Assembly: GCF_000497125.1 (NCBI RefSeq)
Contig: NC_090598.1
Coordinates: 1,488,001-1,552,000, forward strand
Length of the DNA: 64,000 nt
Direction of reading: 5' to 3'
Source of the DNA: Spironucleus salmonicida
Lineage: Eukaryota
In this document: positions 1-45,364 of the stretch, in pieces
Layout of the letters: each line of letters begins with the position of its first letter
Numbering within the stretch: the first letter of the stretch is position 1
Position numbers and translations under genes: made by a program
The notes under the pieces: generated by a model
Told to the model about the DNA's origin: nothing
The model's input: only the letters and a program-made list of their open reading frames with translations
The model's database searches: none

Positions 1-2392
1 CCTATCTCCTTTAGGTTGCGCTACGGACAAGAAGAATTTAGCATTACGTTTTATCCAGATGAAACTGGAGATTGAAAACGGAGCTGACATCCTAGACGCC
101 TTTAACTAATTCATAGGCGCATTCAGAAGAAAACAGGCATGTAACACCAGACGCGATACCAATCAAAAATAGATAGATTTCTGCTTTTAGAGAGGACAGA
201 CTGGAAAGGCATGGAACCTTATTAAGGAAAATTAGAACAAGTAGAACCTATCCCCAGAAAACGCCAGCTCCAGACCGGACCTGGTTAGAGAGTTATTTTA
301 GGAAAACCGGAAACCCGAATATGAATCGGCATCGCGGTAGGGATCAGTAAGAACAGCGCTGCAAGCGCCAACGGCAGAAGAGATTACGAAGATAATCCTA
401 TAGTACCGGGATGGCAAAGCAGGCGGCCCGAGTGGCATTCTTCCAGCCCACCTGAAAGAACTTGAGAAGTCTCATCACATCTCAAACATTCTTGCGAAGG
501 TATACAAACTAATACTTGATACACCATCCCTAGTGAACAAGACTAGGAGACTATTCGAATACCGGATAATCTTCATCCCAAAGAACGCGACCAAGTTTAG
601 ACCGATTTGCATACAGGAGTTATTCCTATAAGTCCTGCACAAAGCACTGGCAGAGAAGATGAAGCAGCAACTAACCCTAGGCAATTATCAATTCGCCTTT
701 ACCAAAAACGCTCTCCTCAGAGCCAAATATTAAGCTAATATCATGCTTAAGAATGGGCTCACCCTTACTTCCCTTGACGTACGAAACGCCTTTAACGCCG
801 TACCTCATAAAGTAATCGAAGAAGAACTCGTGAAAGCCGGCCTAGCACCGGAAACCAACCAATACATCCAAGCCTTTTTGATGGCGCGGAATGCGGAGGG
901 GTTGGAAAGGCTAGGCACCGGCGTCCCCCAAGGGGATCCATTGTCCATGATGCTATTCTGTGTTGTAATGCGCCCGATCCTAGATCGGCTCGCAGGCAAA
1001 TACAAGGTTATCGCATCGTACGCGGACGATGTCCTGATAGGTCACGATTCAGGAGTAAACCTCAAAGACTGTGAAAGCGTCTTTGCAGACTACGGGCTAA
1101 CCCTGTCTGTGGAGAAATGCATAACAGCCTCCCCCACCCAAGCGATTAAATTCGTTGGGTAAGAATTTAAGGACAAACCGATACCGTTAACAGATCACTT
1201 GCTCCAAACCGCTCAGGATGCCTTCCTACTCCTCGAGCAATCGAAGCTCGGGACCACCCAATAACGGTTCCAGATGTTTGTACAATGTATTGTTCCCTCA
1301 GTCAACTATGGCCCACTTGTGGACGTCACGGATGACTAGGAAGCCGGATATACGAAGATAGACGACAGCCTTGTTGCCACCACCTCGCTGATAGCGGGAC
1401 TAAGCATAAAGATTGAAACTCTATTGGATAGCTAGATCCGGGGTGGAATGAACGTGATCACACCTGGTCGCTTCTACCCACTCATGACCGCAGCACGCGA
1501 TGAATTCCATGAGAACAATCACTGCGTCTTTAGAAATATCAGGGAGAAAATCAAAGAACTCGTTCCGGACGATCCAGATCCTGGACGCCCGATGATTTTC
1601 CCCTGCATCTTAGGAGCCACCAGGCTCCCTGGACAGTCTGTCCAGTATCTCTTGAACTCGGCTTTCGGCCCGGTAGCGACACCCAGTAAAACCCATTTGT
1701 GTACGCTATGCGGTACCCCTAAGATTGGAGATCACGACCAAAAATGCAATAGAAATAGCGGAATCCGAATAGTTAGACACAACAAGGCTGTCTCAGCCGC
1801 GATGAACTGCCTAGCGAAGTACGAGCCCCGTGAAATAACACGTCAATAAGCTCCTGAAGGAAAGTTTTATCCGGACTTCAGAATCATTGTAAGTAAAATC
1901 CTGACAGTAGACCTAGATGTCACGTTTACTTCGCAAGAGAATATGGACGCGAAATTTGCAGAAAAGGTTAGAAAGCATAAATTGCCTGACCCTAACCAGA
2001 CTATAATCCCAATGGTTATCTCACATGAACTTTAAATTCATCGCGAGACACTCAAGTTGTTGAAATTCCACTTCCCGGAGTTCAACTACAGGAAATTTAT
2101 GGAAGCGGTGGGAACTGCGACCTGTTTCTATAGACAGGACTCAGTTCGAAACAACACTGCACGATAGATCATAGCTCTCCAGGATAGGAACTATGGTTTA
2201 GAGGAAGACGTTGCAATACGTCTTAATTGGAGAAATGCTGCGAAGAATAACAATCGCAGGCGCCAGCACGCCAGAGGGAGTGCTGTCGCACCCGGGCCGT
2301 GAGGCCAGGGAAAACAAGAAAACCCCCCCCGACAGGGGCAGTAAAGATCCCATATACGCAATGAGGAATGGCAGTACTCGAGTGATCTTTTA

Positions 2393-2427
<35 letters not shown>
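1..2427 (+). mobile_element. Non-LTR retrotransposon (RLE type) inserted in histone H4, copy 1; 5' part lies outside the window
   Basis: Matches 5225-7645 at an offset of 5224 (ORF-track peptides identical). Ends in a 34-nt poly(A) at 2394-2427, joined to H4 sequence CAAATCCGAGAAGG at 2428. Confidence 0.95.
2..2302 (+). CDS. Retrotransposon RT-RLE protein, copy 1 (5'-partial at window edge; TAA/TAG=Gln)
   Basis: Same sequence as the copy-2 ORF; TGA at 2300-2302. Motifs KAGGPSG, FIPK, FRPI, LDVRNAFN, GVPQGDPLS, YADD, CTLCG..DHDQKC, RH, YPD..DLDVT..K. Confidence 0.93.
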
Positions 2428-2428
<1 letters not shown>

Positions 2429-2680
2429 AAATCCGAGAAGGATGCACTCACAGGCATCACCAAGCCTGCCATACGCAGGTTGGCGCGCAGAGGTGGCGTG
2501 AAGAGGATCTCGTCCACGATCTACCCCCAGACGCGCGAGGTGCTGAAGGCGTTCCTGGACGTGGTCATCAGGGACTCGCTGACCTACACTGAGCACGCGC
2601 AGCGCAAGACGGTGACGTCGCAGGACGTGGTGTACGCGCTGAAGCGCCAGGGCAAGACGCTCTACGGCTTCGGGATCTGA
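2428..2680 (+). pseudogene. H4: Histone H4 3' portion, separated from its 5' end by retrotransposon copy 1
   Basis: [28 protein letters not shown]...LYGFGI-TGA follows the poly(A) directly. Confidence 0.93.
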
Positions 2681-2862
2681 GTGATGCTATTCTTGTGGTA
2701 CTCGTTGTGTGAGCGTGTGGTGCATAGGGCTTCCGTGTCTAGTGGGGTGGCGTACTTCCTGCACAGTGCCATAGTGCATATATGTAATATAATAATACTC
2801 ATTCGGGCTTCCCGCAAGTATGATAGTGTATATAAATAATATAATACTAAGGACTCACGATT

Positions 2863-3259
2863 CCCGCAAAGTACCATACTGCCCGAGTATGGTATAATAG
2901 TACCAAATTACGGCTCCCGCCCAAATGCCATACTTCACATATGCAACATTATAATCATAATCCTTCATGGCTCCCTTCCACTCGGCTGGTTTCCCATGGG
3001 CGGGATGTCAAGGGGGCCTTGCCGAAGCCCTTGCCCTTGCCTTTTCCCAACGTCGGTTGGCATGCAGCGTATAATAATGTAATGTTGGTGTCCCTTCCGA
3101 TATGTTAAAGTGGGAATAGGCAATATAATAAAGGGGATTTTCCCTTTCCCGCGAAGTATGATAGGGCATATATACGGTATTATAGTGAGTATTCCCGCTC
3201 CCCGCAAAGTACCATACTGGCCGAGTATGGTATAATAGTAGCAAATTACGCCTCCCGCC
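2863..3259. repeat. Spacer-internal ~59-bp direct repeat (2863-2921, 3201-3259), each with a 9-bp-stem palindrome
   Basis: CCCGCAAAG-TACCATACT-G(C/G)CCG-AGTATGGTA-TAATAGTA(C/G)CAAATTACG occurs twice per unit. Confidence 0.85.
3015..3053 (-). other. Inverted H4 N-tail-like fragment in the spacer, present in every unit
   Basis: Minus strand reads ACG TTG GGA AAA GGC AAG GGC AAG GGC TTC GGC AAG GCC = [13 protein letters not shown] versus H4 [13 protein letters not shown]. Confidence 0.75.
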
Positions 3260-3965
3260 AAAACAGCATTCTGCACATAAATACGCGTGGGCGTATATAA
3301 ATAATACATATATGGCCTATAGCCACTATATGTGCGAGGTTCCTCTACCACCCCACACGGTATTCATATGCTCATAATGGCGAAGTGGGCCGTCGTCCAC
3401 CTCGTCCCCACCAGAGGAGAGAACTCGCCCGGTTTGCCCTTGCCCTTGCCCTTCCCGGACGTCCGCAGGAGCTCGTCCGGAGGCTGGCAGTACCGCCCGG
3501 TCTCGCCCGGCGTGGCACGCACTTGCTTGGGCGGCGTGCGATGGCGCGAGATGACACCCGATGCATGGCACGGCGCGAGATCATCTTAGATGGCCTGCCT
3601 GCCGTGCCCCGCGCCCCGCGCCCATATGGGGCCTACGGGGCCGAGATATGGAGTTCCGGTGAAAATGAGTCTGCAGTTCTGCATATTGAACACGGTAAAT
3701 TTAGTAGATAGATATTTGTATACATCACATATAACATACATACCTATATTCCATAAATCCCTATATGCATCTATATATACTTATACCTATATTCGCACAC
3801 CGCAACCACTTTCGTCACTATAACTATATATTATTCATATTAAAACTCGCTCCCGCCCCCGCCCCAACATATATATTTTATATAGCATATATAAGTATGG
3901 GTTCGCGAACCGATAGCTGGTTTCATCACCAACCTCATAATGCAGGAGTGAGGGTGCTATCAACA

Positions 3966-6900
3966 ATGTCTGGAAAAGGAAAGGGAAAAGGTTTTGGAAA
4001 GGCGACAGACTCGGAGAACACTAGCGATAGTGTAGACCCTGTTGCTCTCACCGCCTAATAAATTCGTATTAGAAGCCTGTTCAAACAGGCACCTGCTCTA
4101 CCCCAACCCCAACCCCAGTCGATCGCTAGTCACATTTCTTCTACCATGAAGAAGCAATAGGCACCTCCAACGTCTAATGGTGACCCCTCGACTTTGACAT
4201 ATTCCCCCTTCACATAAGTTTCAAGCGTGAGACTGTTCAAGCAGGGCCAGGCAAGCCGGGAGGCTCCTGTGCTCTCAGATAAGACCAATAAATCTATCAT
4301 GAGCTTCGTGAAAGCAAGAGAAGAAGAAAGAGCCCCGCAAGGTGCTCCGGACACTTCGGCTGCCGACACTCAGAATCGCGCGCAATTCCCTTCCACACAA
4401 ATTCACGGGGAAACTACAGCTGCGCTCGTTAACTGCCAAGACGAGTAAGCTTAGGAGGTAGCTAGTCTAGCTGCCCCTAACGCAGCGGAAGTGACTGAAC
4501 AACCGCCCTCCTCATAGGTTGCCAGTTAAGAAGGGGCCCCAACCGATTAACCTAGCCTCTAACCAGAGAGCTAAGAGGAAAGCGAGGCCCCGCCTCGCCC
4601 GGATCCCCCAGATGCTCCGGACTACGGGATAGACCCACCAATTCCCAGGCTACCCTCACAAAACATACCGGTAGAGCCCAGAGTCAGACCTCAACTGAAT
4701 TCAATCACCCGGTATGGTATCGTCCACGAGACGAGATCTCAGACAAGACTTATTCCTGAGACACGTGCCCCAAGCACAACAGAAAGTAACGAACACGCTA
4801 GACCAAGGAACCCTGACAAGCCTTTTGAATGTCAGGCATGCACCTTCGCGTCGTCCGACCCCACGAGCCTGCTGAGACATCACGCGCTCACGAGAGGCGG
4901 ATAGCACGATATAAAGTTCCCGCTACTTAGATACAAAGAAGTTTACGAAGACCCCAAACTCTTCAGATTCTACTGTGGAATCTGTAATCACCCTTTTACG
5001 AAGAAATTAAATGTCATGCTCCACCTAATGGATGGAAAATGCAAGAACAAGTAAGGAATGACAAACGAAGCTGCCCAATTGCTAGTAAGAAATAGAGATG
5101 TCTATAGCCTCGAACTAGAGGAATAGCTGGCAAAAGCATCGGCCGCCAAGGCGGCAAGAGCGAAGAGTATAGCAGAATAAATAACTGCACCCAAAATAGG
5201 ACTTCCACCGGAAGCGACGATCAACCTATCTCCTTTAGGTTGCGCTACGGACAAGAAGAATTTAGCATTACGTTTTATCCAGATGAAACTGGAGATTGAA
5301 AACGGAGCTGACATCCTAGACGCCTTTAACTAATTCATAGGCGCATTCAGAAGAAAACAGGCATGTAACACCAGACGCGATACCAATCAAAAATAGATAG
5401 ATTTCTGCTTTTAGAGAGGACAGACTGGAAAGGCATGGAACCTTATTAAGGAAAATTAGAACAAGTAGAACCTATCCCCAGAAAACGCCAGCTCCAGACC
5501 GGACCTGGTTAGAGAGTTATTTTAGGAAAACCGGAAACCCGAATATGAATCGGCATCGCGGTAGGGATCAGTAAGAACAGCGCTGCAAGCGCCAACGGCA
5601 GAAGAGATTACGAAGATAATCCTATAGTACCGGGATGGCAAAGCAGGCGGCCCGAGTGGCATTCTTCCAGCCCACCTGAAAGAACTTGAGAAGTCTCATC
5701 ACATCTCAAACATTCTTGCGAAGGTATACAAACTAATACTTGATACACCATCCCTAGTGAACAAGACTAGGAGACTATTCGAATACCGGATAATCTTCAT
5801 CCCAAAGAACGCGACCAAGTTTAGACCGATTTGCATACAGGAGTTATTCCTATAAGTCCTGCACAAAGCACTGGCAGAGAAGATGAAGCAGCAACTAACC
5901 CTAGGCAATTATCAATTCGCCTTTACCAAAAACGCTCTCCTCAGAGCCAAATATTAAGCTAATATCATGCTTAAGAATGGGCTCACCCTTACTTCCCTTG
6001 ACGTACGAAACGCCTTTAACGCCGTACCTCATAAAGTAATCGAAGAAGAACTCGTGAAAGCCGGCCTAGCACCGGAAACCAACCAATACATCCAAGCCTT
6101 TTTGATGGCGCGGAATGCGGAGGGGTTGGAAAGGCTAGGCACCGGCGTCCCCCAAGGGGATCCATTGTCCATGATGCTATTCTGTGTTGTAATGCGCCCG
6201 ATCCTAGATCGGCTCGCAGGCAAATACAAGGTTATCGCATCGTACGCGGACGATGTCCTGATAGGTCACGATTCAGGAGTAAACCTCAAAGACTGTGAAA
6301 GCGTCTTTGCAGACTACGGGCTAACCCTGTCTGTGGAGAAATGCATAACAGCCTCCCCCACCCAAGCGATTAAATTCGTTGGGTAAGAATTTAAGGACAA
6401 ACCGATACCGTTAACAGATCACTTGCTCCAAACCGCTCAGGATGCCTTCCTACTCCTCGAGCAATCGAAGCTCGGGACCACCCAATAACGGTTCCAGATG
6501 TTTGTACAATGTATTGTTCCCTCAGTCAACTATGGCCCACTTGTGGACGTCACGGATGACTAGGAAGCCGGATATACGAAGATAGACGACAGCCTTGTTG
6601 CCACCACCTCGCTGATAGCGGGACTAAGCATAAAGATTGAAACTCTATTGGATAGCTAGATCCGGGGTGGAATGAACGTGATCACACCTGGTCGCTTCTA
6701 CCCACTCATGACCGCAGCACGCGATGAATTCCATGAGAACAATCACTGCGTCTTTAGAAATATCAGGGAGAAAATCAAAGAACTCGTTCCGGACGATCCA
6801 GATCCTGGACGCCCGATGATTTTCCCCTGCATCTTAGGAGCCACCAGGCTCCCTGGACAGTCTGTCCAGTATCTCTTGAACTCGGCTTTCGGCCCGGTAG

Positions 6901-7526
6901 CGACACCCAGTAAAACCCATTTGTGTACGCTATGCGGTACCCCTAAGATTGGAGATCACGACCAAAAATGCAATAGAAATAGCGGAATCCGAATAGTTAG
7001 ACACAACAAGGCTGTCTCAGCCGCGATGAACTGCCTAGCGAAGTACGAGCCCCGTGAAATAACACGTCAATAAGCTCCTGAAGGAAAGTTTTATCCGGAC
7101 TTCAGAATCATTGTAAGTAAAATCCTGACAGTAGACCTAGATGTCACGTTTACTTCGCAAGAGAATATGGACGCGAAATTTGCAGAAAAGGTTAGAAAGC
7201 ATAAATTGCCTGACCCTAACCAGACTATAATCCCAATGGTTATCTCACATGAACTTTAAATTCATCGCGAGACACTCAAGTTGTTGAAATTCCACTTCCC
7301 GGAGTTCAACTACAGGAAATTTATGGAAGCGGTGGGAACTGCGACCTGTTTCTATAGACAGGACTCAGTTCGAAACAACACTGCACGATAGATCATAGCT
7401 CTCCAGGATAGGAACTATGGTTTAGAGGAAGACGTTGCAATACGTCTTAATTGGAGAAATGCTGCGAAGAATAACAATCGCAGGCGCCAGCACGCCAGAG
7501 GGAGTGCTGTCGCACCCGGGCCGTGA
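3966..7526 (+). CDS. H4-tail::retrotransposon fusion ORF, 1186 aa: H4 residues 1-13, disordered Pro/Gln/Glu-rich region, two zinc fingers, reverse transcriptase, CCHC knuckle, PD-(D/E)xK endonuclease
   Basis: Hand translation with TAA/TAG=Gln from the H4 ATG at 3966 meets no TGA until 7524-7526. ZnF1 KPFECQACTFASSDPTSLLRHH (~4818); ZnF2 FYCGICNHPFTKKLNVMLHLMDGKC (~4968); RT GQTGKAW, KAGGPSG, FIPK, FRPIC, QFAF, LDVRNAFN, GVPQGDPLSM, YADD; CTLCGTPKIGDHDQKC; RHN; FYPDFRI..DLDVTF..EKVRKH. First internal ATG is at 4146. Confidence 0.9.
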
Positions 7527-7645
7527 GGCCAGGGAAAACAAGAAAACCCCCCCCGACAGGGGCAGTAAAGATCCCATATACGCAATGAGGAATGGCAGTA
7601 CTCGAGTGATCTTTTACAAAAAAAAAAAAAAAAAAAAAAAAAAAA
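4006..7645 (+). mobile_element. Non-LTR retrotransposon (RLE type), complete copy 2, inserted after H4 codon 13
   Basis: 5' junction ...GGAAAGGCGA|CAGACTCGG; 3' junction CTTTTAC(A)28|CAAATCCGAG. Intact H4 reads GGCGA-AAAGACA-CAAATCC, so 7 bp are replaced and there is no TSD (3640-7=3633=5218-1585). Confidence 0.96.
7605..7609 (+). promoter_or_regulatory. Putative polyadenylation signal AGTGA of the retrotransposon
   Basis: AGTGA lies 8 nt before the poly(A). The same pentamer overlaps the TGA stop of many host genes here (20092, 25549, 28418, 45364, 47776, 56710) and follows the H4 stop (TGAGTGA). Confidence 0.55.
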
Positions 7646-7898
7646 CAAATCCGAGAAGGATGCACTCACAGGCATCACCAAGCCTGCCATACGCAGGTTG
7701 GCGCGCAGAGGTGGCGTGAAGAGGATCTCGTCCACGATCTACCCCCAGACGCGCGAGGTGCTGAAGGCGTTCCTGGACGTGGTCATCAGGGACTCGCTGA
7801 CCTACACTGAGCACGCGCAGCGCAAGACGGTGACGTCGCAGGACGTGGTGTACGCGCTGAAGCGCCAGGGCAAGACGCTCTACGGCTTCGGGATCTGA
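7646..7898 (+). pseudogene. H4: Histone H4 3' portion, downstream of retrotransposon copy 2
   Basis: H4 coding sequence resumes immediately after the poly(A). Confidence 0.93.
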
Positions 7899-9183
7899 GT
7901 GATGCTATTCTTGTGGTACTCGTTGTGTGAGCGTGTGGTGCATAGGGCTTCCGTGTCTAGTGGGGTGGCGTACTTCCTGCACAGTGCCATAGTGCATATA
8001 TGTAATATAATAATACTCATTCGGGCTTCCCGCAAGTATGATAGTGTATATAAATAATATAATACTAAGGACTCACGATTCCCGCAAAGTACCATACTGC
8101 CCGAGTATGGTATAATAGTACCAAATTACGGCTCCCGCCCAAATGCCATACTTCACATATGCAACATTATAATCATAATCCTTCATGGCTCCCTTCCACT
8201 CGGCTGGTTTCCCATGGGCGGGATGTCAAGGGGGCCTTGCCGAAGCCCTTGCCCTTGCCTTTTCCCAACGTCGGTTGGCATGCAGCGTATAATAATGTAA
8301 TGTTGGTGTCCCTTCCGATATGTTAAAGTGGGAATAGGCAATATAATAAAGGGGATTTTCCCTTTCCCGCGAAGTATGATAGGGCATATATACGGTATTA
8401 TAGTGAGTATTCCCGCTCCCCGCAAAGTACCATACTGGCCGAGTATGGTATAATAGTAGCAAATTACGCCTCCCGCCAAAACAGCATTCTGCACATAAAT
8501 ACGCGTGGGCGTATATAAATAATACATATATGGCCTATAGCCACTATATGTGCGAGGTTCCTCTACCACCCCACACGGTATTCATATGCTCATAATGGCG
8601 AAGTGGGCCGTCGTCCACCTCGTCCCCACCAGAGGAGAGAACTCGCCCGGTTTGCCCTTGCCCTTGCCCTTCCCGGACGTCCGCAGGAGCTCGTCCGGAG
8701 GCTGGCAGTACCGCCCGGTCTCGCCCGGCGTGGCACGCACTTGCTTGGGCGGCGTGCGATGGCGCGAGATGACACCCGATGCATGGCACGGCGCGAGATC
8801 ATCTTAGATGGCCTGCCTGCCGTGCCCCGCGCCCCGCGCCCATATGGGGCCTACGGGGCCGAGATATGGAGTTCCGGTGAAAATGAGTCTGCAGTTCTGC
8901 ATATTGAACACGGTAAATTTAGTAGATAGATATTTGTATACATCACATATAACATACATACCTATATTCCATAAATCCCTATATGCATCTATATATACTT
9001 ATACCTATATTCGCACACCGCAACTACTTTCGTCACTATAACTATATATTATTCATATTAAAACTCGCTCCCGCCCCCGCCCCAACATATATATTTTATA
9101 TAGCATATATAAGTATGGGTTCGCGAACCGATAGCTGGTTTCATCACCAACCTCATAATGCAGGAGTGAGGGTGCTATCAACA

Positions 9184-9483
9184 ATGTCTGGAAAAGGAAA
9201 GGGAAAAGGTTTTGGAAAGGCGAAAAGACACAAATCCGAGAAGGATGCACTCACAGGCATCACCAAGCCTGCCATACGCAGGTTGGCGCGCAGAGGTGGC
9301 GTGAAGAGGATCTCGTCCACGATCTACCCCCAGACGCGCGAGGTGCTGAAGGCGTTCCTGGACGTGGTCATCAGGGACTCGCTGACCTACACTGAGCACG
9401 CGCAGCGCAAGACGGTGACGTCGCAGGACGTGGTGTACGCGCTGAAGCGCCAGGGCAAGACGCTCTACGGCTTCGGGATCTGA
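9184..9483 (+). CDS. H4: Histone H4 (99 aa), intact
   Basis: [44 protein letters not shown]...[12 protein letters not shown]; diplomonad-type short tail. Confidence 0.98.
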
Positions 9484-10768
9484 GTGATGCTATTCTTGTG
9501 GTACTCGTTGTGTGAGCGTGTGGTGCATAGGGCTTCCGTGTCTAGTGGGGTGGCGTACTTCCTGCACAGTGCCATAGTGCATATATGTAATATAATAATA
9601 CTCATTCGGGCTTCCCGCAAGTATGATAGTGTATATAAATAATATAATACTAAGGACTCACGATTCCCGCAAAGTACCATACTGCCCGAGTATGGTATAA
9701 TAGTACCAAATTACGGCTCCCGCCCAAATGCCATACTTCACATATGCAACATTATAATCATAATCCTTCATGGCTCCCTTCCACTCGGCTGGTTTCCCAT
9801 GGGCGGGATGTCAAGGGGGCCTTGCCGAAGCCCTTGCCCTTGCCTTTTCCCAACGTCGGTTGGCATGCAGCGTATAATAATGTAATGTTGGTGTCCCTTC
9901 CGATATGTTAAAGTGGGAATAGGCAATATAATAAAGGGGATTTTCCCTTTCCCGCGAAGTATGATAGGGCATATATACGGTATTATAGTGAGTATTCCCG
10001 CTCCCCGCAAAGTACCATACTGGCCGAGTATGGTATAATAGTAGCAAATTACGCCTCCCGCCAAAACAGCATTCTGCACATAAATACGCGTGGGCGTATA
10101 TAAATAATACATATATGGCCTATAGCCACTATATGTGCGAGGTTCCTCTACCACCCCACACGGTATTCATATGCTCATAATGGCGAAGTGGGCCGTCGTC
10201 CACCTCGTCCCCACCAGAGGAGAGAACTCGCCCGGTTTGCCCTTGCCCTTGCCCTTCCCGGACGTCCGCAGGAGCTCGTCCGGAGGCTGGCAGTACCGCC
10301 CGGTCTCGCCCGGCGTGGCACGCACTTGCTTGGGCGGCGTGCGATGGCGCGAGATGACACCCGATGCATGGCACGGCGCGAGATCATCTTAGATGGCCTG
10401 CCTGCCGTGCCCCGCGCCCCGCGCCCATATGGGGCCTACGGGGCCGAGATATGGAGTTCCGGTGAAAATGAGTCTGCAGTTCTGCATATTGAACACGGTA
10501 AATTTAGTAGATAGATATTTGTATACATCACATATAACATACATACCTATATTCCATAAATCCCTATATGCATCTATATATACTTATACCTATATTCGCA
10601 CACCGCAACTACTTTCGTCACTATAACTATATATTATTCATATTAAAACTCGCTCCCGCCCCCGCCCCAACATATATATTTTATATAGCATATATAAGTA
10701 TGGGTTCGCGAACCGATAGCTGGTTTCATCACCAACCTCATAATGCAGGAGTGAGGGTGCTATCAACA

Positions 10769-11068
10769 ATGTCTGGAAAAGGAAAGGGAAAAGGTTTTGG
10801 AAAGGCGAAAAGACACAAATCCGAGAAGGATGCACTCACAGGCATCACCAAGCCTGCCATACGCAGGTTGGCGCGCAGAGGTGGCGTGAAGAGGATCTCG
10901 TCCACGATCTACCCCCAGACGCGCGAGGTGCTGAAGGCGTTCCTGGACGTGGTCATCAGGGACTCGCTGACCTACACTGAGCACGCGCAGCGCAAGACGG
11001 TGACGTCGCAGGACGTGGTGTACGCGCTGAAGCGCCAGGGCAAGACGCTCTACGGCTTCGGGATCTGA
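10769..11068 (+). CDS. H4: Histone H4, intact
   Basis: Same protein as 9184-9483. Confidence 0.98.
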
Positions 11069-12353
11069 GTGATGCTATTCTTGTGGTACTCGTTGTGTGA
11101 GCGTGTGGTGCATAGGGCTTCCGTGTCTAGTGGGGTGGCGTACTTCCTGCACAGTGCCATAGTGCATATATGTAATATAATAATACTCATTCGGGCTTCC
11201 CGCAAGTATGATAGTGTATATAAATAATATAATACTAAGGACTCACGATTCCCGCAAAGTACCATACTGCCCGAGTATGGTATAATAGTACCAAATTACG
11301 GCTCCCGCCCAAATGCCATACTTCACATATGCAACATTATAATCATAATCCTTCATGGCTCCCTTCCACTCGGCTGGTTTCCCATGGGCGGGATGTCAAG
11401 GGGGCCTTGCCGAAGCCCTTGCCCTTGCCTTTTCCCAACGTCGGTTGGCATGCAGCGTATAATAATGTAATGTTGGTGTCCCTTCCGATATGTTAAAGTG
11501 GGAATAGGCAATATAATAAAGGGGATTTTCCCTTTCCCGCGAAGTATGATAGGGCATATATACGGTATTATAGTGAGTATTCCCGCTCCCCGCAAAGTAC
11601 CATACTGGCCGAGTATGGTATAATAGTAGCAAATTACGCCTCCCGCCAAAACAGCATTCTGCACATAAATACGCGTGGGCGTATATAAATAATACATATA
11701 TGGCCTATAGCCACTATATGTGCGAGGTTCCTCTACCACCCCACACGGTATTCATATGCTCATAATGGCGAAGTGGGCCGTCGTCCACCTCGTCCCCACC
11801 AGAGGAGAGAACTCGCCCGGTTTGCCCTTGCCCTTGCCCTTCCCGGACGTCCGCAGGAGCTCGTCCGGAGGCTGGCAGTACCGCCCGGTCTCGCCCGGCG
11901 TGGCACGCACTTGCTTGGGCGGCGTGCGATGGCGCGAGATGACACCCGATGCATGGCACGGCGCGAGATCATCTTAGATGGCCTGCCTGCCGTGCCCCGC
12001 GCCCCGCGCCCATATGGGGCCTACGGGGCCGAGATATGGAGTTCCGGTGAAAATGAGTCTGCAGTTCTGCATATTGAACACGGTAAATTTAGTAGATAGA
12101 TATTTGTATACATCACATATAACATACATACCTATATTCCATAAATCCCTATATGCATCTATATATACTTATACCTATATTCGCACACCGCAACTACTTT
12201 CGTCACTATAACTATATATTATTCATATTAAAACTCGCTCCCGCCCCCGCCCCAACATATATATTTTATATAGCATATATAAGTATGGGTTCGCGAACCG
12301 ATAGCTGGTTTCATCACCAACCTCATAATGCAGGAGTGAGGGTGCTATCAACA

Positions 12354-12653
12354 ATGTCTGGAAAAGGAAAGGGAAAAGGTTTTGGAAAGGCGAAAAGACA
12401 CAAATCCGAGAAGGATGCACTCACAGGCATCACCAAGCCTGCCATACGCAGGTTGGCGCGCAGAGGTGGCGTGAAGAGGATCTCGTCCACGATCTACCCC
12501 CAGACGCGCGAGGTGCTGAAGGCGTTCCTGGACGTGGTCATCAGGGACTCGCTGACCTACACTGAGCACGCGCAGCGCAAGACGGTGACGTCGCAGGACG
12601 TGGTGTACGCGCTGAAGCGCCAGGGCAAGACGCTCTACGGCTTCGGGATCTGA
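12354..12653 (+). CDS. H4: Histone H4, intact
   Basis: Same protein as 9184-9483. Confidence 0.98.
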
Positions 12654-13938
12654 GTGATGCTATTCTTGTGGTACTCGTTGTGTGAGCGTGTGGTGCATAG
12701 GGCTTCCGTGTCTAGTGGGGTGGCGTACTTCCTGCACAGTGCCATAGTGCATATATGTAATATAATAATACTCATTCGGGCTTCCCGCAAGTATGATAGT
12801 GTATATAAATAATATAATACTAAGGACTCACGATTCCCGCAAAGTACCATACTGCCCGAGTATGGTATAATAGTACCAAATTACGGCTCCCGCCCAAATG
12901 CCATACTTCACATATGCAACATTATAATCATAATCCTTCATGGCTCCCTTCCACTCGGCTGGTTTCCCATGGGCGGGATGTCAAGGGGGCCTTGCCGAAG
13001 CCCTTGCCCTTGCCTTTTCCCAACGTCGGTTGGCATGCAGCGTATAATAATGTAATGTTGGTGTCCCTTCCGATATGTTAAAGTGGGAATAGGCAATATA
13101 ATAAAGGGGATTTTCCCTTTCCCGCGAAGTATGATAGGGCATATATACGGTATTATAGTGAGTATTCCCGCTCCCCGCAAAGTACCATACTGGCCGAGTA
13201 TGGTATAATAGTAGCAAATTACGCCTCCCGCCAAAACAGCATTCTGCACATAAATACGCGTGGGCGTATATAAATAATACATATATGGCCTATAGCCACT
13301 ATATGTGCGAGGTTCCTCTACCACCCCACACGGTATTCATATGCTCATAATGGCGAAGTGGGCCGTCGTCCACCTCGTCCCCACCAGAGGAGAGAACTCG
13401 CCCGGTTTGCCCTTGCCCTTGCCCTTCCCGGACGTCCGCAGGAGCTCGTCCGGAGGCTGGCAGTACCGCCCGGTCTCGCCCGGCGTGGCACGCACTTGCT
13501 TGGGCGGCGTGCGATGGCGCGAGATGACACCCGATGCATGGCACGGCGCGAGATCATCTTAGATGGCCTGCCTGCCGTGCCCCGCGCCCCGCGCCCATAT
13601 GGGGCCTACGGGGCCGAGATATGGAGTTCCGGTGAAAATGAGTCTGCAGTTCTGCATATTGAACACGGTAAATTTAGTAGATAGATATTTGTATACATCA
13701 CATATAACATACATACCTATATTCCATAAATCCCTATATGCATCTATATATACTTATACCTATATTCGCACACCGCAACTACTTTCGTCACTATAACTAT
13801 ATATTATTCATATTAAAACTCGCTCCCGCCCCCGCCCCAACATATATATTTTATATAGCATATATAAGTATGGGTTCGCGAACCGATAGCTGGTTTCATC
13901 ACCAACCTCATAATGCAGGAGTGAGGGTGCTATCAACA

Positions 13939-14238
13939 ATGTCTGGAAAAGGAAAGGGAAAAGGTTTTGGAAAGGCGAAAAGACACAAATCCGAGAAGGA
14001 TGCACTCACAGGCATCACCAAGCCTGCCATACGCAGGTTGGCGCGCAGAGGTGGCGTGAAGAGGATCTCGTCCACGATCTACCCCCAGACGCGCGAGGTG
14101 CTGAAGGCGTTCCTGGACGTGGTCATCAGGGACTCGCTGACCTACACTGAGCACGCGCAGCGCAAGACGGTGACGTCGCAGGACGTGGTGTACGCGCTGA
14201 AGCGCCAGGGCAAGACGCTCTACGGCTTCGGGATCTGA
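13939..14238 (+). CDS. H4: Histone H4, intact
   Basis: Same protein as 9184-9483. Confidence 0.98.
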
Positions 14239-15523
14239 GTGATGCTATTCTTGTGGTACTCGTTGTGTGAGCGTGTGGTGCATAGGGCTTCCGTGTCTAG
14301 TGGGGTGGCGTACTTCCTGCACAGTGCCATAGTGCATATATGTAATATAATAATACTCATTCGGGCTTCCCGCAAGTATGATAGTGTATATAAATAATAT
14401 AATACTAAGGACTCACGATTCCCGCAAAGTACCATACTGCCCGAGTATGGTATAATAGTACCAAATTACGGCTCCCGCCCAAATGCCATACTTCACATAT
14501 GCAACATTATAATCATAATCCTTCATGGCTCCCTTCCACTCGGCTGGTTTCCCATGGGCGGGATGTCAAGGGGGCCTTGCCGAAGCCCTTGCCCTTGCCT
14601 TTTCCCAACGTCGGTTGGCATGCAGCGTATAATAATGTAATGTTGGTGTCCCTTCCGATATGTTAAAGTGGGAATAGGCAATATAATAAAGGGGATTTTC
14701 CCTTTCCCGCGAAGTATGATAGGGCATATATACGGTATTATAGTGAGTATTCCCGCTCCCCGCAAAGTACCATACTGGCCGAGTATGGTATAATAGTAGC
14801 AAATTACGCCTCCCGCCAAAACAGCATTCTGCACATAAATACGCGTGGGCGTATATAAATAATACATATATGGCCTATAGCCACTATATGTGCGAGGTTC
14901 CTCTACCACCCCACACGGTATTCATATGCTCATAATGGCGAAGTGGGCCGTCGTCCACCTCGTCCCCACCAGAGGAGAGAACTCGCCCGGTTTGCCCTTG
15001 CCCTTGCCCTTCCCGGACGTCCGCAGGAGCTCGTCCGGAGGCTGGCAGTACCGCCCGGTCTCGCCCGGCGTGGCACGCACTTGCTTGGGCGGCGTGCGAT
15101 GGCGCGAGATGACACCCGATGCATGGCACGGCGCGAGATCATCTTAGATGGCCTGCCTGCCGTGCCCCGCGCCCCGCGCCCATATGGGGCCTACGGGGCC
15201 GAGATATGGAGTTCCGGTGAAAATGAGTCTGCAGTTCTGCATATTGAACACGGTAAATTTAGTAGATAGATATTTGTATACATCACATATAACATACATA
15301 CCTATATTCCATAAATCCCTATATGCATCTATATATACTTATACCTATATTCGCACACCGCAACCACTTTCGTCACTATAACTATATATTATTCATATTA
15401 AAACTCGCTCCCGCCCCCGCCCCAACATATATATTTTATATAGCATATATAAGTATGGGTTCGCGAACCGATAGCTGGTTTCATCACCAACCTCATAATG
15501 CAGGAGTGAGGGTGCTATCAACA

Positions 15524-15823
15524 ATGTCTGGAAAAGGAAAGGGAAAAGGTTTTGGAAAGGCGAAAAGACACAAATCCGAGAAGGATGCACTCACAGGCAT
15601 CACCAAGCCTGCCATACGCAGGTTGGCGCGCAGAGGTGGCGTGAAGAGGATCTCGTCCACGATCTACCCCCAGACGCGCGAGGTGCTGAAGGCGTTCCTG
15701 GACGTGGTCATCAGGGACTCGCTGACCTACACTGAGCACGCGCAGCGCAAGACGGTGACGTCGCAGGACGTGGTGTACGCGCTGAAGCGCCAGGGCAAGA
15801 CGCTCTACGGCTTCGGGATCTGA
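15524..15823 (+). CDS. H4: Histone H4, intact (last in array)
   Basis: Same protein as 9184-9483. Confidence 0.98.
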
Positions 15824-17229
15824 GTGATGCTATTCTTGTGGTACTCGTTGTGTGAGCGTGTGGTGCATAGGGCTTCCGTGTCTAGTGGGGTGGCGTACTT
15901 CCTGCACAGTGCCATAGTGCATATATGTAATATAATAATACTCATTCGGGCTTCCCGCAAGTATGATAGTGTATATAAATAATATAATACTAAGGACTCA
16001 CGATTCCCGCAAAGTACCATACTGCCCGAGTATGGTATAATAGTACCAAATTACGGCTCCCGCCCAAATGCCATACTTCACATATGCAACATTATAATCA
16101 TAATCCTTCATGGCTCCCTTCCACTCGGCTGGTTTCCCATGGGCGGGATGTCAAGGGGGCCTTGCCGAAGCCCTTGCCCTTGCCTTTTCCCAACGTCGGT
16201 TGGCATGCAGCGTATAATAATGTAATGTTGGTGTCCCTTCCGATATGTTAAAGTGGGAATAGGCAATATAATAAAGGGGATTTGCCCTTTCCCGCGAAGT
16301 ATGATAGGGCATATATACGGTATTATAGTGAGTATTCCCGCTCCCCGCAAAGTACCATACTGCCCGAGTATGGTATAATAGTAGCAAATTACGCCTCCCG
16401 CCAAAACAGCATTCTGCACATAAATACGCGTGGGCGTATATAAATAATACATATATGGCCTATAGCCACTATATGTGCGAGGTTCCTCTACCACCCCACA
16501 CGGTATTCATATGCTCATAATGGCGAAGTGGGCCGTCGTCCACCTCGTCCCCACCAGAGGAGAGAACTCGCCCGGTTTGCCCTTGCCCTTGCCCTTCCCG
16601 GACGTCCGCAGGAGCTCGTCCGGAGGCTGGCAGTACCGCCCGGTCTCGCCCGGCGTGGCACGCACTTGCTTGGGCGGCGTGCGATGGCGCGAGATCACCT
16701 TAGATGGTCTGCCTCCCCACACCTCACCATGCTGCCACCCCACCACACATCGCACACCCAAAGCGATGACATAACCAAAGTATATCCGACATATCCCGTA
16801 ACTCCATATTATTATCCACACCTCTATACATACTGCATGGTAAATTATATCGCTCATTCCATCATATGCAAGACGAATCATCCATTTCCCATATATTTAG
16901 TCAAGTCCGAATTAAAAATATGAATATTATATAAAATATATTTAACTTTCATCTAAAAATATAATAATATTATTGAATATTTAACATAATAATGCTATTA
17001 AATAAAAATATAGTTGTTATTCTTCTGGATGTAATTTAATAATGGTGAGTATTCTAATTTGAGATTATACAGCTTAAAATGTATAACCTAGTTTAAAATC
17101 AAGTTTTATTGTAGTGAATATTAAATTTATTAGGTACCCTTTATTTGCTATTTGATAAAAGTAAACTTTATTTAAGCCACATAAACTATTATTATTTGTT
17201 TATATTATATTATATATAAAATTAGAAAA

Positions 17230-30184: not shown

Positions 30185-33100
30185 ATGGAGGACAAAGTAT
30201 ATATGTTTATTAAATCATTTTATGATGAACGATTTCATTAGTGCCTTAGAGAATAACTTTAAAATTTAGAAAGAACGCAAGATTTATATCAAATTAGAGA
30301 AATTTAGCTCATTTAAGTGTCATCAGAAGAAGATAAAATGTTGAGTAGCATTAATTATAATATTATTATTAATTAACCATCAAAAGTATTTTACATATAT
30401 GGACAACTAATTGGGGATTTTAACAAATAAACATTACTCAGATAATTGTCATTTATGATAGAACAAAATGCACATCAAGAGGTTAATTCATTTATACCTA
30501 AACTTAAATAATTAGATTAGTTAATACAAGTATATAAATTAACTGAAATAATATTAATGCCAACACTATACAATATTTACAATATTTCTAATTTTGCAAA
30601 ATTCTTTAGTGTTATTTAATTAAAGTTATAGTAAAATGAGTTATTATAATTTGTAGACTATGGATAGTTGTTTCCTAATATACCAGTTAGTATAACGGAA
30701 ACTTCAATCATAAAGTCTTATTAGAACTTTTTTTAGTATTAAGCTAGAAAAAAACTAAAAATTACTCAGAATATAAAAATTTCAAGCTAAATTTCTGGAA
30801 ATATTATTAAAATTACTCCAAAAAATAAGTAGGTCATAATTTTAGCTACAAAAATATTATATATTTTATTAGAAACTTACCTTTAATAACTTATTAATAT
30901 AGAACAATCAACATCTATGACTGGAATAAATGTAACCTATTAACAAATTATATTATAATTTTAAAAAAGTTAATTTAATCTTAGTTAAATATTTACTCTA
31001 TTAAAGTAATAAGAATTTTTATAAATTTTTGATGTTCTTTAATAATATAGATATTCAATATAAATGGGGCTATTTTCGGCATTACCATAGTTAAATAGTT
31101 AAATTGATGAATCATTGAAATTAATAGATGATTTATTTGACTGTAAATAGACATTATTTATTGCTTTAGATAATCATGAAATATAATTAACAAAGACAAT
31201 TTAATTATACTAGTAGCTGTCTTAACATTTATGGCTTATTAATAATCCTGATGTTAAAATAAAATTAATATTTAGTTATTTTAATCGAAAAGTGGAATAA
31301 AGATATTATTTTAAATCTAAAGGTTTTATATGCTTACTACTAGAAATATAATAGTTTTATTTAAATTCTTTTGATAATATTTAAATTATAATACTAAATA
31401 ACAAAAAATTATTAAATTTAACTGAGTTTGAGACAATGCAAATAATAAACGTTGTTATCAATGATATTGTAAATTTTTTAAAGATATTATTAAGTAATTT
31501 AATATAATTTATATTTACACGAGTAAGTTAGTTTTAAATTGATCTAGGATCAAGCTTACTTATTTCTTAGTCATCTAAAGAATTTTAAACGGTACTATCT
31601 ATAGATAAATAGATTATTGAATTTTATAATTCATAACCAAATGCAATTTCTCTTTTAAGATCTTTATTATTAATAAATGGCTAGGACTTTTAAAAATATT
31701 ACGCTTAGGATAATGATTTTATATTCGAAGATTTTAATGATTACTATAGTTAATAGGTATTAGAAATAACAGGGTAAGATTTATTATTGATGAATTTTTA
31801 AGAGTATGTTTTACTAGGCCCAGGATTGGTATAGATTTTTATTAAAATAAACCATCTGGCATATGTTATAACAAGCTAATTAAAAAGTATGATAATGAAT
31901 CTTAGATAACAGTAATTAAAAGAAGTAAGTATTAAAATGGAATAAGTTTTTAAATCCATCTAAAATGATCTTAACCTGTTTGATAGTTAAATAATTTTAT
32001 CATTAGAATATATTAAATATTTAAAAACGATTAACTAATATTCATAGGTTAAGTTTTTGGGTAAATTAGATTTAAGAGAAATTATCTTGCATAAATAGTT
32101 AGATACAGATAATAATGTATCTTCACTTATACCATTATAAGAAGAATAGCTAAACTACAATAATCTATAATTTACATCTTAACTTATTGAGTAAGAATTA
32201 TCATTTCTATTAGAAGACTTATAAGTTGATGTCATATCATAATTTTTAACAGCAATTGATTATTATTTCTTAGAATTTCATTAGTTTACTTTAGATTTTG
32301 TCGAAAAACTTCATCAAAATAATAATACAGCAACAACTGAAAAATTTTTCAATGAAAATGATATTTAAATGTCTTCATCACTAAAAATATTCAACTAAAA
32401 TAAAAACTTAATTAATGTACAAGGGGGATCTTGGACAAGAGTCTAAAATATTTCTTAATATGCGGATTTATTTGGATTTAATTTATATACATAAGAAACG
32501 GAACGATTTTAGATTTATTAATAGAATATAGTAGATTTTAATATTATTCTTTCAAAATCTTTGCTAAATATTATTTAATCTTAACTATAATTGAAAGAGA
32601 ATTTAGATTTGGATATACAGTTAAAATTTTTAGGAAAAATTTCTAGTCCCATATCTTAGAAAAATAATAATCTAATAGATTTATAATTTTAAAAGAGCTT
32701 CATTTCTATTGTAAATAAATTAGGAATTTATCTAAAAAATTCAGAATAGTATGTAATAAATATTATACAGAAGAAAGAGCAAGAATTTTAATACATATTG
32801 AAGTCTACATTGAAATCACCATTTACTGTTACTAATTTACCTTCTATTGTTTTATACTTATCACATATTTATAGAAACATTGTTGGTATTAATAGATCTG
32901 TGGAATCTGTTTAAAATATGATGAAAAAGTTTCCATCAAATGAAGATTTTGATATAATACTTTTACGATCATTAGATTTAACTAATAATACTAGTATTTT
33001 ACTATAATCTTTTTTTAAGTTATGGCAGTAATCCCGCATAACTTCATTTTTTAAAAAATAATTATAAGACCCACTACTAAAAAATAATATACAATATAAT

Positions 33101-45100: not shown

Positions 45101-45364
45101 CCTGCAAAAGTTGATATAGATGGGATTTAGTGTGGAAGAATTATACTTGGTCTTGTGAATAAGGAACATGATTTAAAAATTGCAATGCTAAAAGCTATTT
45201 GTAGTGAAATAGACTAAATTTAAGTTCCAATAAAAATAGATAGTTATTAATTAGATACAATATAAAGTTATTAAAAGCAATGGGAAGATTTTTTGAATGA
45301 ACTAGATTAATGCATTGAAATCAGTAATGCATAAAGCCCAAGATGGTAAAGTAAAAGTTAGTGA
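30185..45364 (+). CDS. Highly divergent dynein heavy chain-like protein (~5059 aa)
   Basis: Start, stop and all spot-checked lines are in one frame. Stalk/MTBD motifs PPELVKRMLDCLSILL (~42015) and ITPESIELLQPYLSSPDFN..SNWI (~42500); AAA1-like LGQPSILVN..NAWSQFIDRF (~36850-36980). Confidence 0.65.

Follow-up and report, generated by a model that had tools for sequence, protein, structure and literature searches.

Histone H4 genes of Spironucleus salmonicida are interrupted by a 3.64-kb element which, judged from the architecture of its predicted protein, is an R2-like non-LTR retrotransposon bearing a restriction-like endonuclease (RLE), and which is almost certainly specific for H4. The window analysed here is the whole stretch of 64,000 nucleotides taken from contig NC_090598.1. 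The junction is common to both copies in the window and to all three public models, and a distant family in another organism adjoins H4 at essentially the same position. In the complete copy the element open reading frame (ORF) is continuous with the H4 start codon. That an H4-specific RLE element is transcribed from the host promoter and translated from the H4 AUG stands, as an overall explanation, at about an even chance.

The host gene was identified as histone H4 over its full length (PDB phmmer, E = 9.7e-54). In the window the array comprises five intact units, two element-interrupted units and a 244-bp partial unit at its end. With unit 8527-10111 as blastn query, four units are 100% and one is 99.8% identical, and in the interrupted units the flanks match an intact unit at 99.8-99.9% identity (blastn). 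The element occupies two of the seven H4 units of the array in the window, which together with a depth ratio of 0.41 in DNA run X1 puts the share of knocked-out units at about 30-40%. Colinearity with the intact unit is broken at 4005/4006 and again at the boundary between the A-run and CAAATCC. The 5' junction reads ...GGCGA/CAGAC... (element from 4006) and lies just past the 13th H4 codon, and about 7 nt of H4 target (AAAGACA) are replaced by the element. A 114-aa minus-strand ORF at 8183-8527 was discarded as spurious, being without a Pfam family and of implausible composition.

Table 1. Features of the H4 array and of the inserted element (window coordinates).
Feature	Position	Strand	Remark
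Histone H4 tandem array, 1585-bp units	1..16695	+	blastn of unit 8527-10111 against the window
Element copy A, 5' part cut by window start	1..2427	+	identical to copy B except A34 tail instead of A28
H4 3' remnant downstream of copy A	2428..2680	+	
H4 start codon, 12 more codons and 1 nt (A), upstream of insertion	3966..4005	+	identical to 9184-9223 of intact H4
Chimeric ORF, 1186 codons, identical to public model P0003	3966..7526	+	NCBI table 6
Full-length non-LTR retrotransposon, copy B, 3640 bp including A28 tail	4006..7645	+	colinearity breaks against intact unit
Element 5' segment, 140 nt; translated linker or 5' leader	4006..4145	+	ATG and TGA absent in all frames; no frame-specific codon signal
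First ATG within element (Met61 of chimera)	4146..4148	+	C-rich context tctaccATG
Two N-terminal zinc-finger-like motifs: C2H2-like aa 287-306, CCHC-like aa 335-359	4824..5042	+	read in translation
Reverse transcriptase (RT) domain, aa 612-808, intact YADD at 6243-6254 (aa 760-763)	5799..6389	+	Pfam RVT_1, E = 3.6e-23
C-terminal CCHC knuckle and RLE (CX2CX7HX3C, RHN, PD, D, K)	6924..7205	+	
Structured 3' UTR ending in AGTGA (7605-7609), host-type poly(A) signal	7527..7617	+	
Poly(A) tail, 28 A, at 3' junction	7618..7645	+	
Promoterless H4 3' remnant, last base of codon 16 to stop	7646..7898	+	
Intact H4 gene with empty target site 9223-9230	9184..9483	+	identical copies at 10769, 12354, 13939 and 15524

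Such a layout has already been published: the assembly paper describes an H4 tandem array with RT genes between the H4 copies and with H4 pseudo-copies (PMC9509377, excerpt). The element explains this array interspersed with RT genes, which had been left uninterpreted, and the target specificity, the insertion point, the in-frame junction and the relatives elsewhere are new with respect to the excerpted text of that paper. In its excerpted text, a subsequent survey of repeats records no LINEs for this species (PMC11787283).

The predicted protein appears to be that of an active element, with an uninterrupted ORF that retains its catalytic residues. The RT residues A761, D762 and D763 are invariant among seven relatives, as are C987, C990, H998, C1002 and H1013 of the CCHC/RHN region in the alignment of relatives. 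The RHN, PD and D residues of the endonuclease align residue by residue to R2Bm 949-1027, and Pfam detected no APE endonuclease domain in the protein. The zinc-finger-like region is recognised at motif level: the family profile matches PRDM9 zinc-finger arrays weakly (E = 1.2e-4), and none of the Pfam zinc-finger models matched the element protein at E <= 0.01. The predicted fold of the 3' UTR (z = -3.4) is more stable than that of any of 200 shuffles. AGTGA is located 8 nt upstream of the A-tail, while the stop codon of the element ORF itself lacks this motif, which overlaps the stop codon in 7 of the 13 other ORFs in the window. It has been reported as the host poly(A) signal (PMC11529991, excerpt).

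Among solved structures the best matches of the element protein are R2 proteins, with E ~1e-6 for the single sequence in phmmer. A profile of seven sequences reaches R2 with E = 7e-48 including a separate match to the endonuclease domain (i-E = 3.7e-9), and L1 ORF2 matches the same profile in the RT core alone. With R2 of animals the element shares one ORF that encodes N-terminal motifs (zinc fingers in R2, zinc-finger-like here) followed by RT and by C-terminal CCHC and RLE, strict insertion at one position within a host gene present as a tandem repeat, a structured 3' UTR and a small deletion instead of a duplication of the target. A further likeness is probably the lack of a promoter of its own and the dependence on host-gene transcription known from R2 (PMC12203849, excerpt). 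R2 in the strict sense is inserted in 28S rRNA genes, whereas the target here is codons 13-16 of the Pol II-transcribed, protein-coding H4 gene. Further differences from R2 are the long poly(A) tail of the element, its poly(A) signal of host type, the low identity between the two sequences (the single-sequence E value given above) and an ORF continuous with a host start codon, an option closed to R2 in an rRNA.

The chimeric ORF begins with ATG 3966, runs through 13 codons as in intact H4, continues in frame into TDSENTSDS... of the element and ends with TGA at 7524-7526. The first ATG of the element itself in any frame, 4146, is located 140 nt inside the element and 180 nt past the H4 ATG, so that the coordinates and content of the fusion given in a preliminary description of this DNA were confirmed. 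The ORF is open over 1186 codons solely under NCBI table 6 (TAA/TAG = Gln), with 32 in-frame TAA/TAG codons read as Q, and the predicted tryptic junction peptide after K12 is ATDSENTSDSVDPVALTAQQIR. No frame contains a TGA between 3966 and 4146, and the openness of the first 140 nt is therefore uninformative. In Markov-1 simulations of this segment the probability of finding no TGA is 0.21, that of finding no ATG 0.40 and that of both 0.11, hence the joint lack of ATG and TGA is not unusual and was rejected as a signal. Once the TGA-free segment is discounted, all that is left is the chance of one in three for an in-frame join, as already conceded in the preliminary description, and the fusion as such has little statistical weight.

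Three distinct public models of 1186 aa (P0001, P0003 and P0004) have the same H4::element N-terminus. Public models and element copies differ by 1-2 residues or in A-tail length alone, and because they are near-identical and reside in one homogenised array, all copies sharing the junction amount to one observation. The earlier statement that one 5' junction is visible is correct for the window, where copy A is truncated at the first position; the junctions of the public models add to it, though not independently. As for the frame at other 5' junctions, all three public models agree with the window, while an H4-like N-terminal tail was found in none of eight long close relatives.

Giardia 5' UTRs are usually 1-10 nt long (PMC1805757, excerpt). 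The first ATG of the chimera is that of H4, in the same frame as the element ORF. Initiation in Giardia is reportedly cap-proximal, as described by Li and Wang in 2004. Because of the very short leaders reported for diplomonad mRNAs (PMC1805757, excerpt) and the cap-proximal initiation, the H4 AUG would be the most likely start; translation from it is nevertheless assigned a probability of about one half. A codon-usage frame test of the 47 element codons preceding ATG 4146 gave 0.033 for frame 0, 0.046 for frame 1 and -0.104 for frame 2, none of which leaves the non-coding range. In calibration, coding windows of equal length preferred frame 0 in 32 of 36 cases, and in 16 of 19 within the disordered N-terminal part. 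The context of ATG 4146 has C at -1, compared with A at -1 in 12 of the 13 other ORF starts in the window.

Rather unlikely, though the strongest of the alternatives, is a transcript that is initiated at the H4 promoter and translated from AUG 4146, with the H4 AUG either cut off by RNA processing around 3978/3979 or circumvented through an IRES-like structure. The in-frame relation would then be a coincidence of one in three and the first 140 nt a true leader. Such a leader is consistent with the non-coding appearance of the 47-codon segment and with the absence of ATG from all frames of 4006-4145, although the latter is not unusual (P = 0.40), and the predicted fold of 3960-4200 is moderately structured (z = -2.3). 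Precedents exist in R2, which is co-transcribed, self-cleaving and initiated independently of the cap (PMC12203849, excerpt), and in the IRES of giardiavirus, which works in Giardia (PMC2757703, excerpt). Against this stand the atypical context of ATG 4146 for this genome and the failure to detect a ribozyme: a search of 3300-8600 against Rfam at E <= 1 returned neither a ribozyme nor any other family. A descriptor for HDV-like ribozymes applied to cleavage positions 3940-4030 produced two overlapping hits (before 3989/3990, with an A-U-only P3), no better than shuffled sequences, since 12% of 60 shuffles gave at least two hits. In this respect the element differs from R2, although a novel ribozyme is possible. 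Contigs from RNA-like runs end at 3978/3979 in three of three runs, 12-13 nt downstream of the H4 ATG, while the DNA contig reaches 3976, and this boundary is possibly a true 5' end devoid of the ATG. In standard cDNA libraries roughly 10-15 nt are lost from the 5' end of an RNA, and a transcript starting just upstream of 3966 would therefore also explain this boundary.

In contrast to the start codon, the transcription of the element from the H4 promoter is probable. A+T content in the 40 nt upstream of ATG 4146 is 47%, whereas 12 of the window's 13 other ORFs have at least 70%; AT-rich stretches close to the start codon have been reported as a promoter feature (PMC1805757, excerpt). The element is abundantly covered in runs X2, X3 and X5, at depths of 4,470-9,107 versus 0-660 for the spacer (one mean per contig, which shows neither transcript starts nor strand nor level). 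DNA run X1 exhibits the reverse pattern, with 843 for the element and 1,700-2,070 for the spacer. The RNA nature of X2, X3, X5 and X8 is a guess, as none of these runs is recorded as RNA; X2, X3 and X5 carry non-templated poly(A) followed by adapter at the H4 3' end, from which it follows that X2 and X3 at least contain cDNA. The element contigs of the RNA-like runs start at 3979, 3979 and 3978, compared with 3976 in the DNA contig, and include 27-28 nt of H4, which falls short of the 31 letters needed for bridging.

The promoter capture proposed in the preliminary description is hence borne out to a fair degree by the AT-poor 5' end, the lack of a recognisable ribozyme, the AGTGA signal and the H4 nucleotides in the RNA-like contigs. 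Its other half, the capture of the ATG, has about even odds, given contigs stopping at 3978/3979, no frame signal, a prior of one in three and no H4-like tail in eight relatives. The suggested role of the Lys-rich H4 tail as a nuclear localisation signal or histone mimic found no support: just 13 residues are kept, and the insertion removes the basic patch KRHK which follows residue 13. A function of the tail is very doubtful. The preliminary description recognised neither the R2-like, site-specific nature of the element nor the use of this H4 site by a second, distant family.

Many non-LTR elements have internal 5' promoters. An example is Pr77 of L1Tc (PMC12278014, excerpt). A promoter of this kind in the 5' end of the element, driving expression independently of H4 and leaving the upstream H4 letters in the RNA-like contigs to low-level read-through, would be compatible with the single mean depth per contig, under which junction k-mers could be rare. 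It is considered quite improbable, as the first 140 nt are C-rich, unlike promoter regions of this genome, and a start at 4006 would create a 140-nt leader atypical for diplomonads. Moreover, the depth of the 5'-most contig (3979-4254 in X2) is 90% of that of the body contig in X2 and 83% in X5, a pattern that a start near 4146 can hardly account for, although one at 4006 is still compatible with it.

The specificity for H4 is the most firmly established part of the H4-promoter reading. In DNA run X1 the element was assembled into one unbranched contig (3976-7607) starting exactly at the point where the empty site diverges in the k = 31 graph; the assembly therefore contains no other 5' context. 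A second, distant family, represented by metagenome contig L002 of another organism with genetic code 6, uses this H4 site as well. Its protein is 28% identical over 757 aa (BLASTP; 30% in the best tblastn segment), and its 3' end, ...GAGTGATCAATTTTTC, is directly followed by 19 H4 residues, H4 resuming at about residue 15. As the relative adjoins H4 at essentially the same position, the site is an old, family-level target beyond the amplification of one array. One fortuitous insertion in an H4 unit, spread passively through the array by unequal crossing-over, with neither H4 specificity nor adapted expression, would account for array units 99.8-100% identical and for copies differing just in A-tail length or 1-2 residues, as under concerted evolution, yet it is extremely unlikely. 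It is strongly disfavoured by the L002 relative, which in a different organism occupies practically this position of H4; further points against it are the intact ORF with its catalytic residues, a protein built from DNA-binding and RLE parts as in strictly site-specific elements, and the unequal A-tails of adjacent copies (34 versus 28).

By analogy with R2, a single protein combining zinc fingers, RT, CCHC and RLE would recognise the site in H4 codons 13-16 and nick it, and polyadenylated RNA would be copied in by target-primed reverse transcription with replacement of about 7 nt of target. Each insertion would kill one H4 copy, a loss that the multicopy array would tolerate. The H4 promoter would drive the transcript of an element without a promoter, and the element's own host-type AGUGA signal would end it. 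The ribosome would most likely start at the H4 AUG and read straight into the element, giving a fusion of the 13-residue H4 tail with the element ORF in which the tail and the next 47 residues may be a passenger linker. A broader proposal, put forward tentatively and with somewhat less than even confidence, is that hexamitine diplomonads harbour an old R2-like lineage dedicated to H4 coding sequence and expressed by being joined in frame to the first 13 codons instead of by a ribozyme and cap-independent initiation. It would inherit the H4 promoter, the cell-cycle timing and a cap-proximal AUG, and the 5' junction would be regenerated at each insertion as the RNA template carries H4 at its 5' end. 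If true, this would be a site-specific non-LTR element whose protein is a chimera with the product of its target gene.

The targets known for site-specific non-LTR retrotransposons comprise rDNA, snRNA, tRNA and spliced-leader genes, microsatellites and telomeres. In the literature searched, to which most subscription-journal papers and Repbase reports did not belong, no report of a non-LTR element targeting a histone gene or any protein-coding sequence was found. A protein-coding target poses a problem that R2 never meets, namely translation from a host Pol II mRNA in an organism with reported leaders of a few nt, and in-frame fusion to the host start codon would be its simplest solution. SLACS transcripts reportedly start at +1 of the interrupted SL gene (Patrick et al., in 2008), which amounts to promoter capture. 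By their description, the CRE, SLACS and CZAR elements in the spliced-leader RNA genes of trypanosomatids resemble the H4 element in being of RLE type, in encoding one ORF with 1-2 zinc fingers (zinc-finger-like motifs in the H4 element), in ending with poly(A) and in their constant position within a tandemly repeated Pol II-transcribed gene (PMC12278014, excerpt). Contrary to H4, their target is a non-coding RNA gene, which makes a translational fusion impossible. The compact RLE enzyme of the H4 element, whose defined target lies within a coding sequence, may interest developers of R2-type proteins for targeted insertion.

Further relatives were sought in protein and metagenome collections. 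A word-indexed protein search with 8000 scored candidates returned the element protein itself and one weak R2-like match, and a metagenome scan with the whole protein gave 69 pattern matches, none of which was confirmed; the metagenome relatives were found with a 3-sequence alignment as query. No 5' junction was recovered for L001, L002, L003 and L005, whose ORFs are open to the contig end. The L008 contig starts 14 nt before the relative's own ATG and has an in-frame TGA 9 nt before that ATG. A weak H4 match in L006 (E = 1.6, 28% identity) was taken as chance.

The nearest named relatives are RT/endonuclease proteins of Hexamita inflata (e.g. CAL6024034.1, 1212 aa) and Giardia ESU45216.1 and ESU40772.1, with E = 1e-57 and 5e-45 and about 29-31% identity. 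They share domain order and the invariant CCHC/RHN residues, whereas their N-termini are unrelated and not H4-like: full-length Hexamita inflata proteins begin with MLSVGSEL..., and the N-terminal 300 residues of the element protein do not resemble the Hexamita protein (E = 0.99). The two Giardia proteins presumably belong to the GilM/GilT/Genie lineages. GilM and GilT have been reported as telomere-associated, not histone-associated (PMC10999387, excerpt). The Hexamita family cluster has 34 members, and the 15 listed among them are located on contigs of many different sizes, which suggests that this family is dispersed.

The 3.64-kb insertion in the H4 genes of this window is very probably a new, H4-specific retrotransposon of the known R2-like kind but with a different target. 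The published layout shows the H4 array interspersed with reverse transcriptase (RT) genes, left uninterpreted in the accessible text of that paper, and LINEs are missing from what a subsequent survey of repeats gives for the same species (PMC11787283). Literature searches for histone-gene-specific non-LTR elements returned nothing.

Features of the H4 array and of the inserted element
Feature	Position	Basis
Tandem H4 array, 1585-bp units with one H4 gene each	1–16695	unit comparison within the window
Five intact H4 units	8527–16451	
Copy A of the insertion, cut by the window start	1–2427	
Copy B of the insertion	4006–7645	
Two zinc-finger-like motifs	aa 287–359 of the chimera	
RT domain with YADD	aa 612–808	Pfam, E = 3.6e-23
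C-terminal knuckle CX2CX7HX3C, followed by RHN, PD, D and K		

Comparison of filled with empty units places the 5′ junction between GGCGA and CAGAC (4005/4006) and the 3′ junction at a run of 28 (copy B) or 34 (copy A) adenines followed by CAAATCCGAG. Insertion has replaced about 7 nt of the target (AAAGACA) without any duplication, and the length of the A-tail is the sole difference between the two copies. Intact H4 copies (e.g. 9184–9483) encode a 99-aa protein which matches solved H4 chains over the full length (E = 9.7e-54). With 50% G+C in the array and 48% in the element the region forms a G+C-rich island, compared to 24% in the A+T-rich stretch 17000–64000. A 134-bp direct repeat occurs twice in each H4 spacer (8027–8159 and 8364–8497, repeated in each unit), its copies being about 82% identical. 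A C at position 3807, in the unit that precedes copy B, contrasts with T in the five intact units (9025 and equivalents); the site is T in the RNA-like public runs X3 and X5 and C in the RNA-like run X2 and the DNA run X1. This difference could serve as a marker to separate array units.

The preliminary description, according to which ATG 3966 opens a frame of 13 H4 codons running straight into TDSENTSDS... and remaining open for 1186 codons, is confirmed by reading 3400–4500 and translating 3966–7600 with NCBI table 6 (code 6), while its interpretation as promoter and start-codon capture is partly supported. The chimeric ORF ends at TGA 7524–7526 and contains 32 in-frame TAA/TAG codons, so that it would not exist unless they are read as Gln. 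Three observations justify code 6: several of these codons lie inside the RT domain, very long ORFs occur in the rest of the window only under this code (e.g. 5059 aa with 509 reassigned TAA/TAG codons), and the translation of 3966–7526 is identical to the public model P0003. The 5059-codon ORF, located at 30185–45364, is presumably the gene of a giant protein.

The element encodes a single protein. In a single-sequence search of solved structures R2 proteins are the best matches, with the C-terminal knuckle and the endonuclease region aligning to R2Bm. A family profile of the element and six relatives matches R2 with E = 7e-48, the endonuclease domain being separately significant (i-E = 3.7e-9), whereas in L1 ORF2 the RT core alone is matched. 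Exhaustive searching of 1.84 billion representatives with HMMER yielded 1334 matches with E ≤ 1e-3, 13 of them with E ≤ 1e-30. Among named relatives, Hexamita inflata 'reverse transcriptase/endonuclease' proteins and the reverse transcriptases of Giardia come closest (about 29–31% identity). The top-ranking R2 proteins, the endonuclease match of the profile and the diplomonad relatives together place the element, as RLE-type and R2-like, in a diplomonad lineage. It cannot be counted as R2 sensu stricto, because its target differs and no ribozyme was found in it. The 91-nt 3′ UTR folds significantly more stably than shuffled sequences (z = -3.4). Beyond the endonuclease domain, the C-terminal tails of the element (7480–7526, ending in ...RRRQHARGSAVAPGP at the stop) and of the Hexamita proteins (P0160; ...RRAPRAPPGLEG...) are both Arg/Pro/Gly-rich.

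An H4 tail is present at the start of all three public 1186-aa protein models (P0001, P0003 and P0004), which differ mutually by 1–2 residues; as the array is homogenised, such within-genome evidence for H4 specificity is weak on its own. In the DNA run X1 the element forms a single unbranched contig at 0.41 of the depth of the H4 5′ flank (842.8 versus 2043.7), and since its start at 3976 is the exact branch point of the 31-mer graph from the empty-site path, no other 5′ context is assembled in this run. When metagenomes were scanned with an RT alignment of three sequences, twelve loci encoding close relatives emerged, in 10 of which ORFs of at least 300 aa exist only under code 6. One locus, L002, is a whole contig of 2645 bp with the stop of the element ORF at 2501–2503 and a 3′ UTR ending in ...TTGAGTGATCAATTTTTC, directly followed by bases that encode H4 starting near residue 15 (74% identical across 19 aa by tblastn, E = 0.003); in the window, H4 resumes with the last base of codon 16. 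The L002 and window proteins share 28% identity over 757 aa (BLASTP; 30% in the best tblastn segment). We regard this junction as the decisive evidence for H4 site specificity: families that have diverged widely, in two organisms, share what is essentially one H4 site, and specificity for H4 is therefore old. Another locus, L008, begins with CATGAAAAGACTAAATGG (1–30), the GAAAAGAC...AAAT part of which resembles the window H4 target GCGAAAAGACACAAAT; the stretch is too short to be called an H4 flank.

The closest systems in mechanism are R2, co-transcribed with the gene it occupies, and CRE/SLACS, RLE-type elements with a poly(A) tail that are reported always to occupy one fixed position in SL RNA genes (PMC12278014). 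New in the present element are its protein-coding target and, possibly, a translational fusion with it.

A+T makes up 47% of the 40 nt upstream of ATG 4146, the first ATG inside the element, and the base at -1 is C, compared to at least 70% A+T and A at -1, each in 12 of the 13 other long window ORFs. The promoter feature described for this group is an AT-rich stretch at the start codon (PMC1805757), and the element contains no promoter-like sequence. AGTGA, corresponding to the reported poly(A) signal AGUGA (PMC11529991), is found in the element 8 nt upstream of the A-tail. In 7 of 13 window ORFs it overlaps the stop codon, and it also occurs in the H4 stop region (TGAGTGA). It is missing at the stop of the element ORF (ccgTGAgg), which would spare the 3′ UTR; L002 shares the terminal GAGTGATC...TTTT.C. 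Lacking a promoter-like sequence and possessing its own AGTGA, the element resembles a unit of Pol II transcription that contributes the 3′ end only.

X2 and X3 contain cDNA, as non-templated poly(A) plus adapter is found at 7913–7916, 15–18 nt past the H4 stop. The mean word depth on the element is 9,107 (X2), 4,471 (X3) and 6,027 (X5) versus 0–660 on the spacer that precedes it. X5 contains both codon-113 alleles (S/G between P0003 and P0004), so at least two copies of the element are represented. The allele depths at this codon (4302; S113G) are 628 and 2,365, and RNA-like contigs break there and at about 4255. The element contigs start at 3979, 3979 and 3978 in X2, X3 and X5, respectively, and include 27–28 nt of H4, fewer than the 31 letters required for a bridge. 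They weakly support transcription entering from H4; the contigs reach 3978/3979, and the RNA itself may or may not extend to 3966–3968. Use of the H4 promoter is likely. Furthermore, a non-templated T-run immediately before 8060 in X2 and X3 and contigs over 8060–8467 at a depth of about 1,200–4,750 suggest that the H4 spacer (7900–8530, near 8060) gives rise to a polyadenylated transcript from the minus strand. The sole long ORF of that spacer (8183–8527, minus strand, 114 aa) matches no Pfam family and appears to be spurious.

In Giardia, a leader of a single nucleotide is reportedly optimal for capped mRNAs (Li and Wang, 2004). The H4 ATG is the first ATG and in frame with the element, the next one following 180 nt downstream in poor context, and leaders of 1–10 nt are reported as usual in Giardia (PMC1805757). 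Start-codon capture is plausible. However, an in-frame junction has a prior of one third, which counts against reading much into the frame. TGA is absent from all three frames of 3966–4146, with simulated chances of 0.21 for lacking TGA, 0.40 for lacking ATG and 0.11 for both. A codon-usage test, which favoured the true frame in 32 of 36 calibration windows, gave values in the non-coding range for frame 0 (0.033), frame 1 (0.046) and frame 2 (-0.104). The RNA-like contigs begin 12–13 nt past the H4 ATG, none of the eight long close relatives starts with an H4-like tail, and L008 has an in-frame stop just upstream of its own ATG. The odds of translation from the H4 ATG are about even. Instead of using this codon, the element might employ cleavage and cap-independent initiation as reported for R2 (PMC12203849); the 5′ region shows moderate structure (z = -2.3) and an IRES is reported to function in Giardia for giardiavirus (PMC2757703), but Rfam has no match in the element region and an HDV-like ribozyme descriptor performed no better than chance, leaving this route without positive support. 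The proposed role of the Lys-rich tail as a localization signal or histone mimic is unsupported: the insertion removes the adjacent KRHK patch, and a specific function of the remaining 13 residues is therefore improbable. The first element ATG overlaps a +1-frame TGA (ATGA, 4146–4149), a stop-start arrangement which may be due to chance and would permit reinitiation for an upstream ORF arriving in frame +1, yet is irrelevant to the present in-frame junction.
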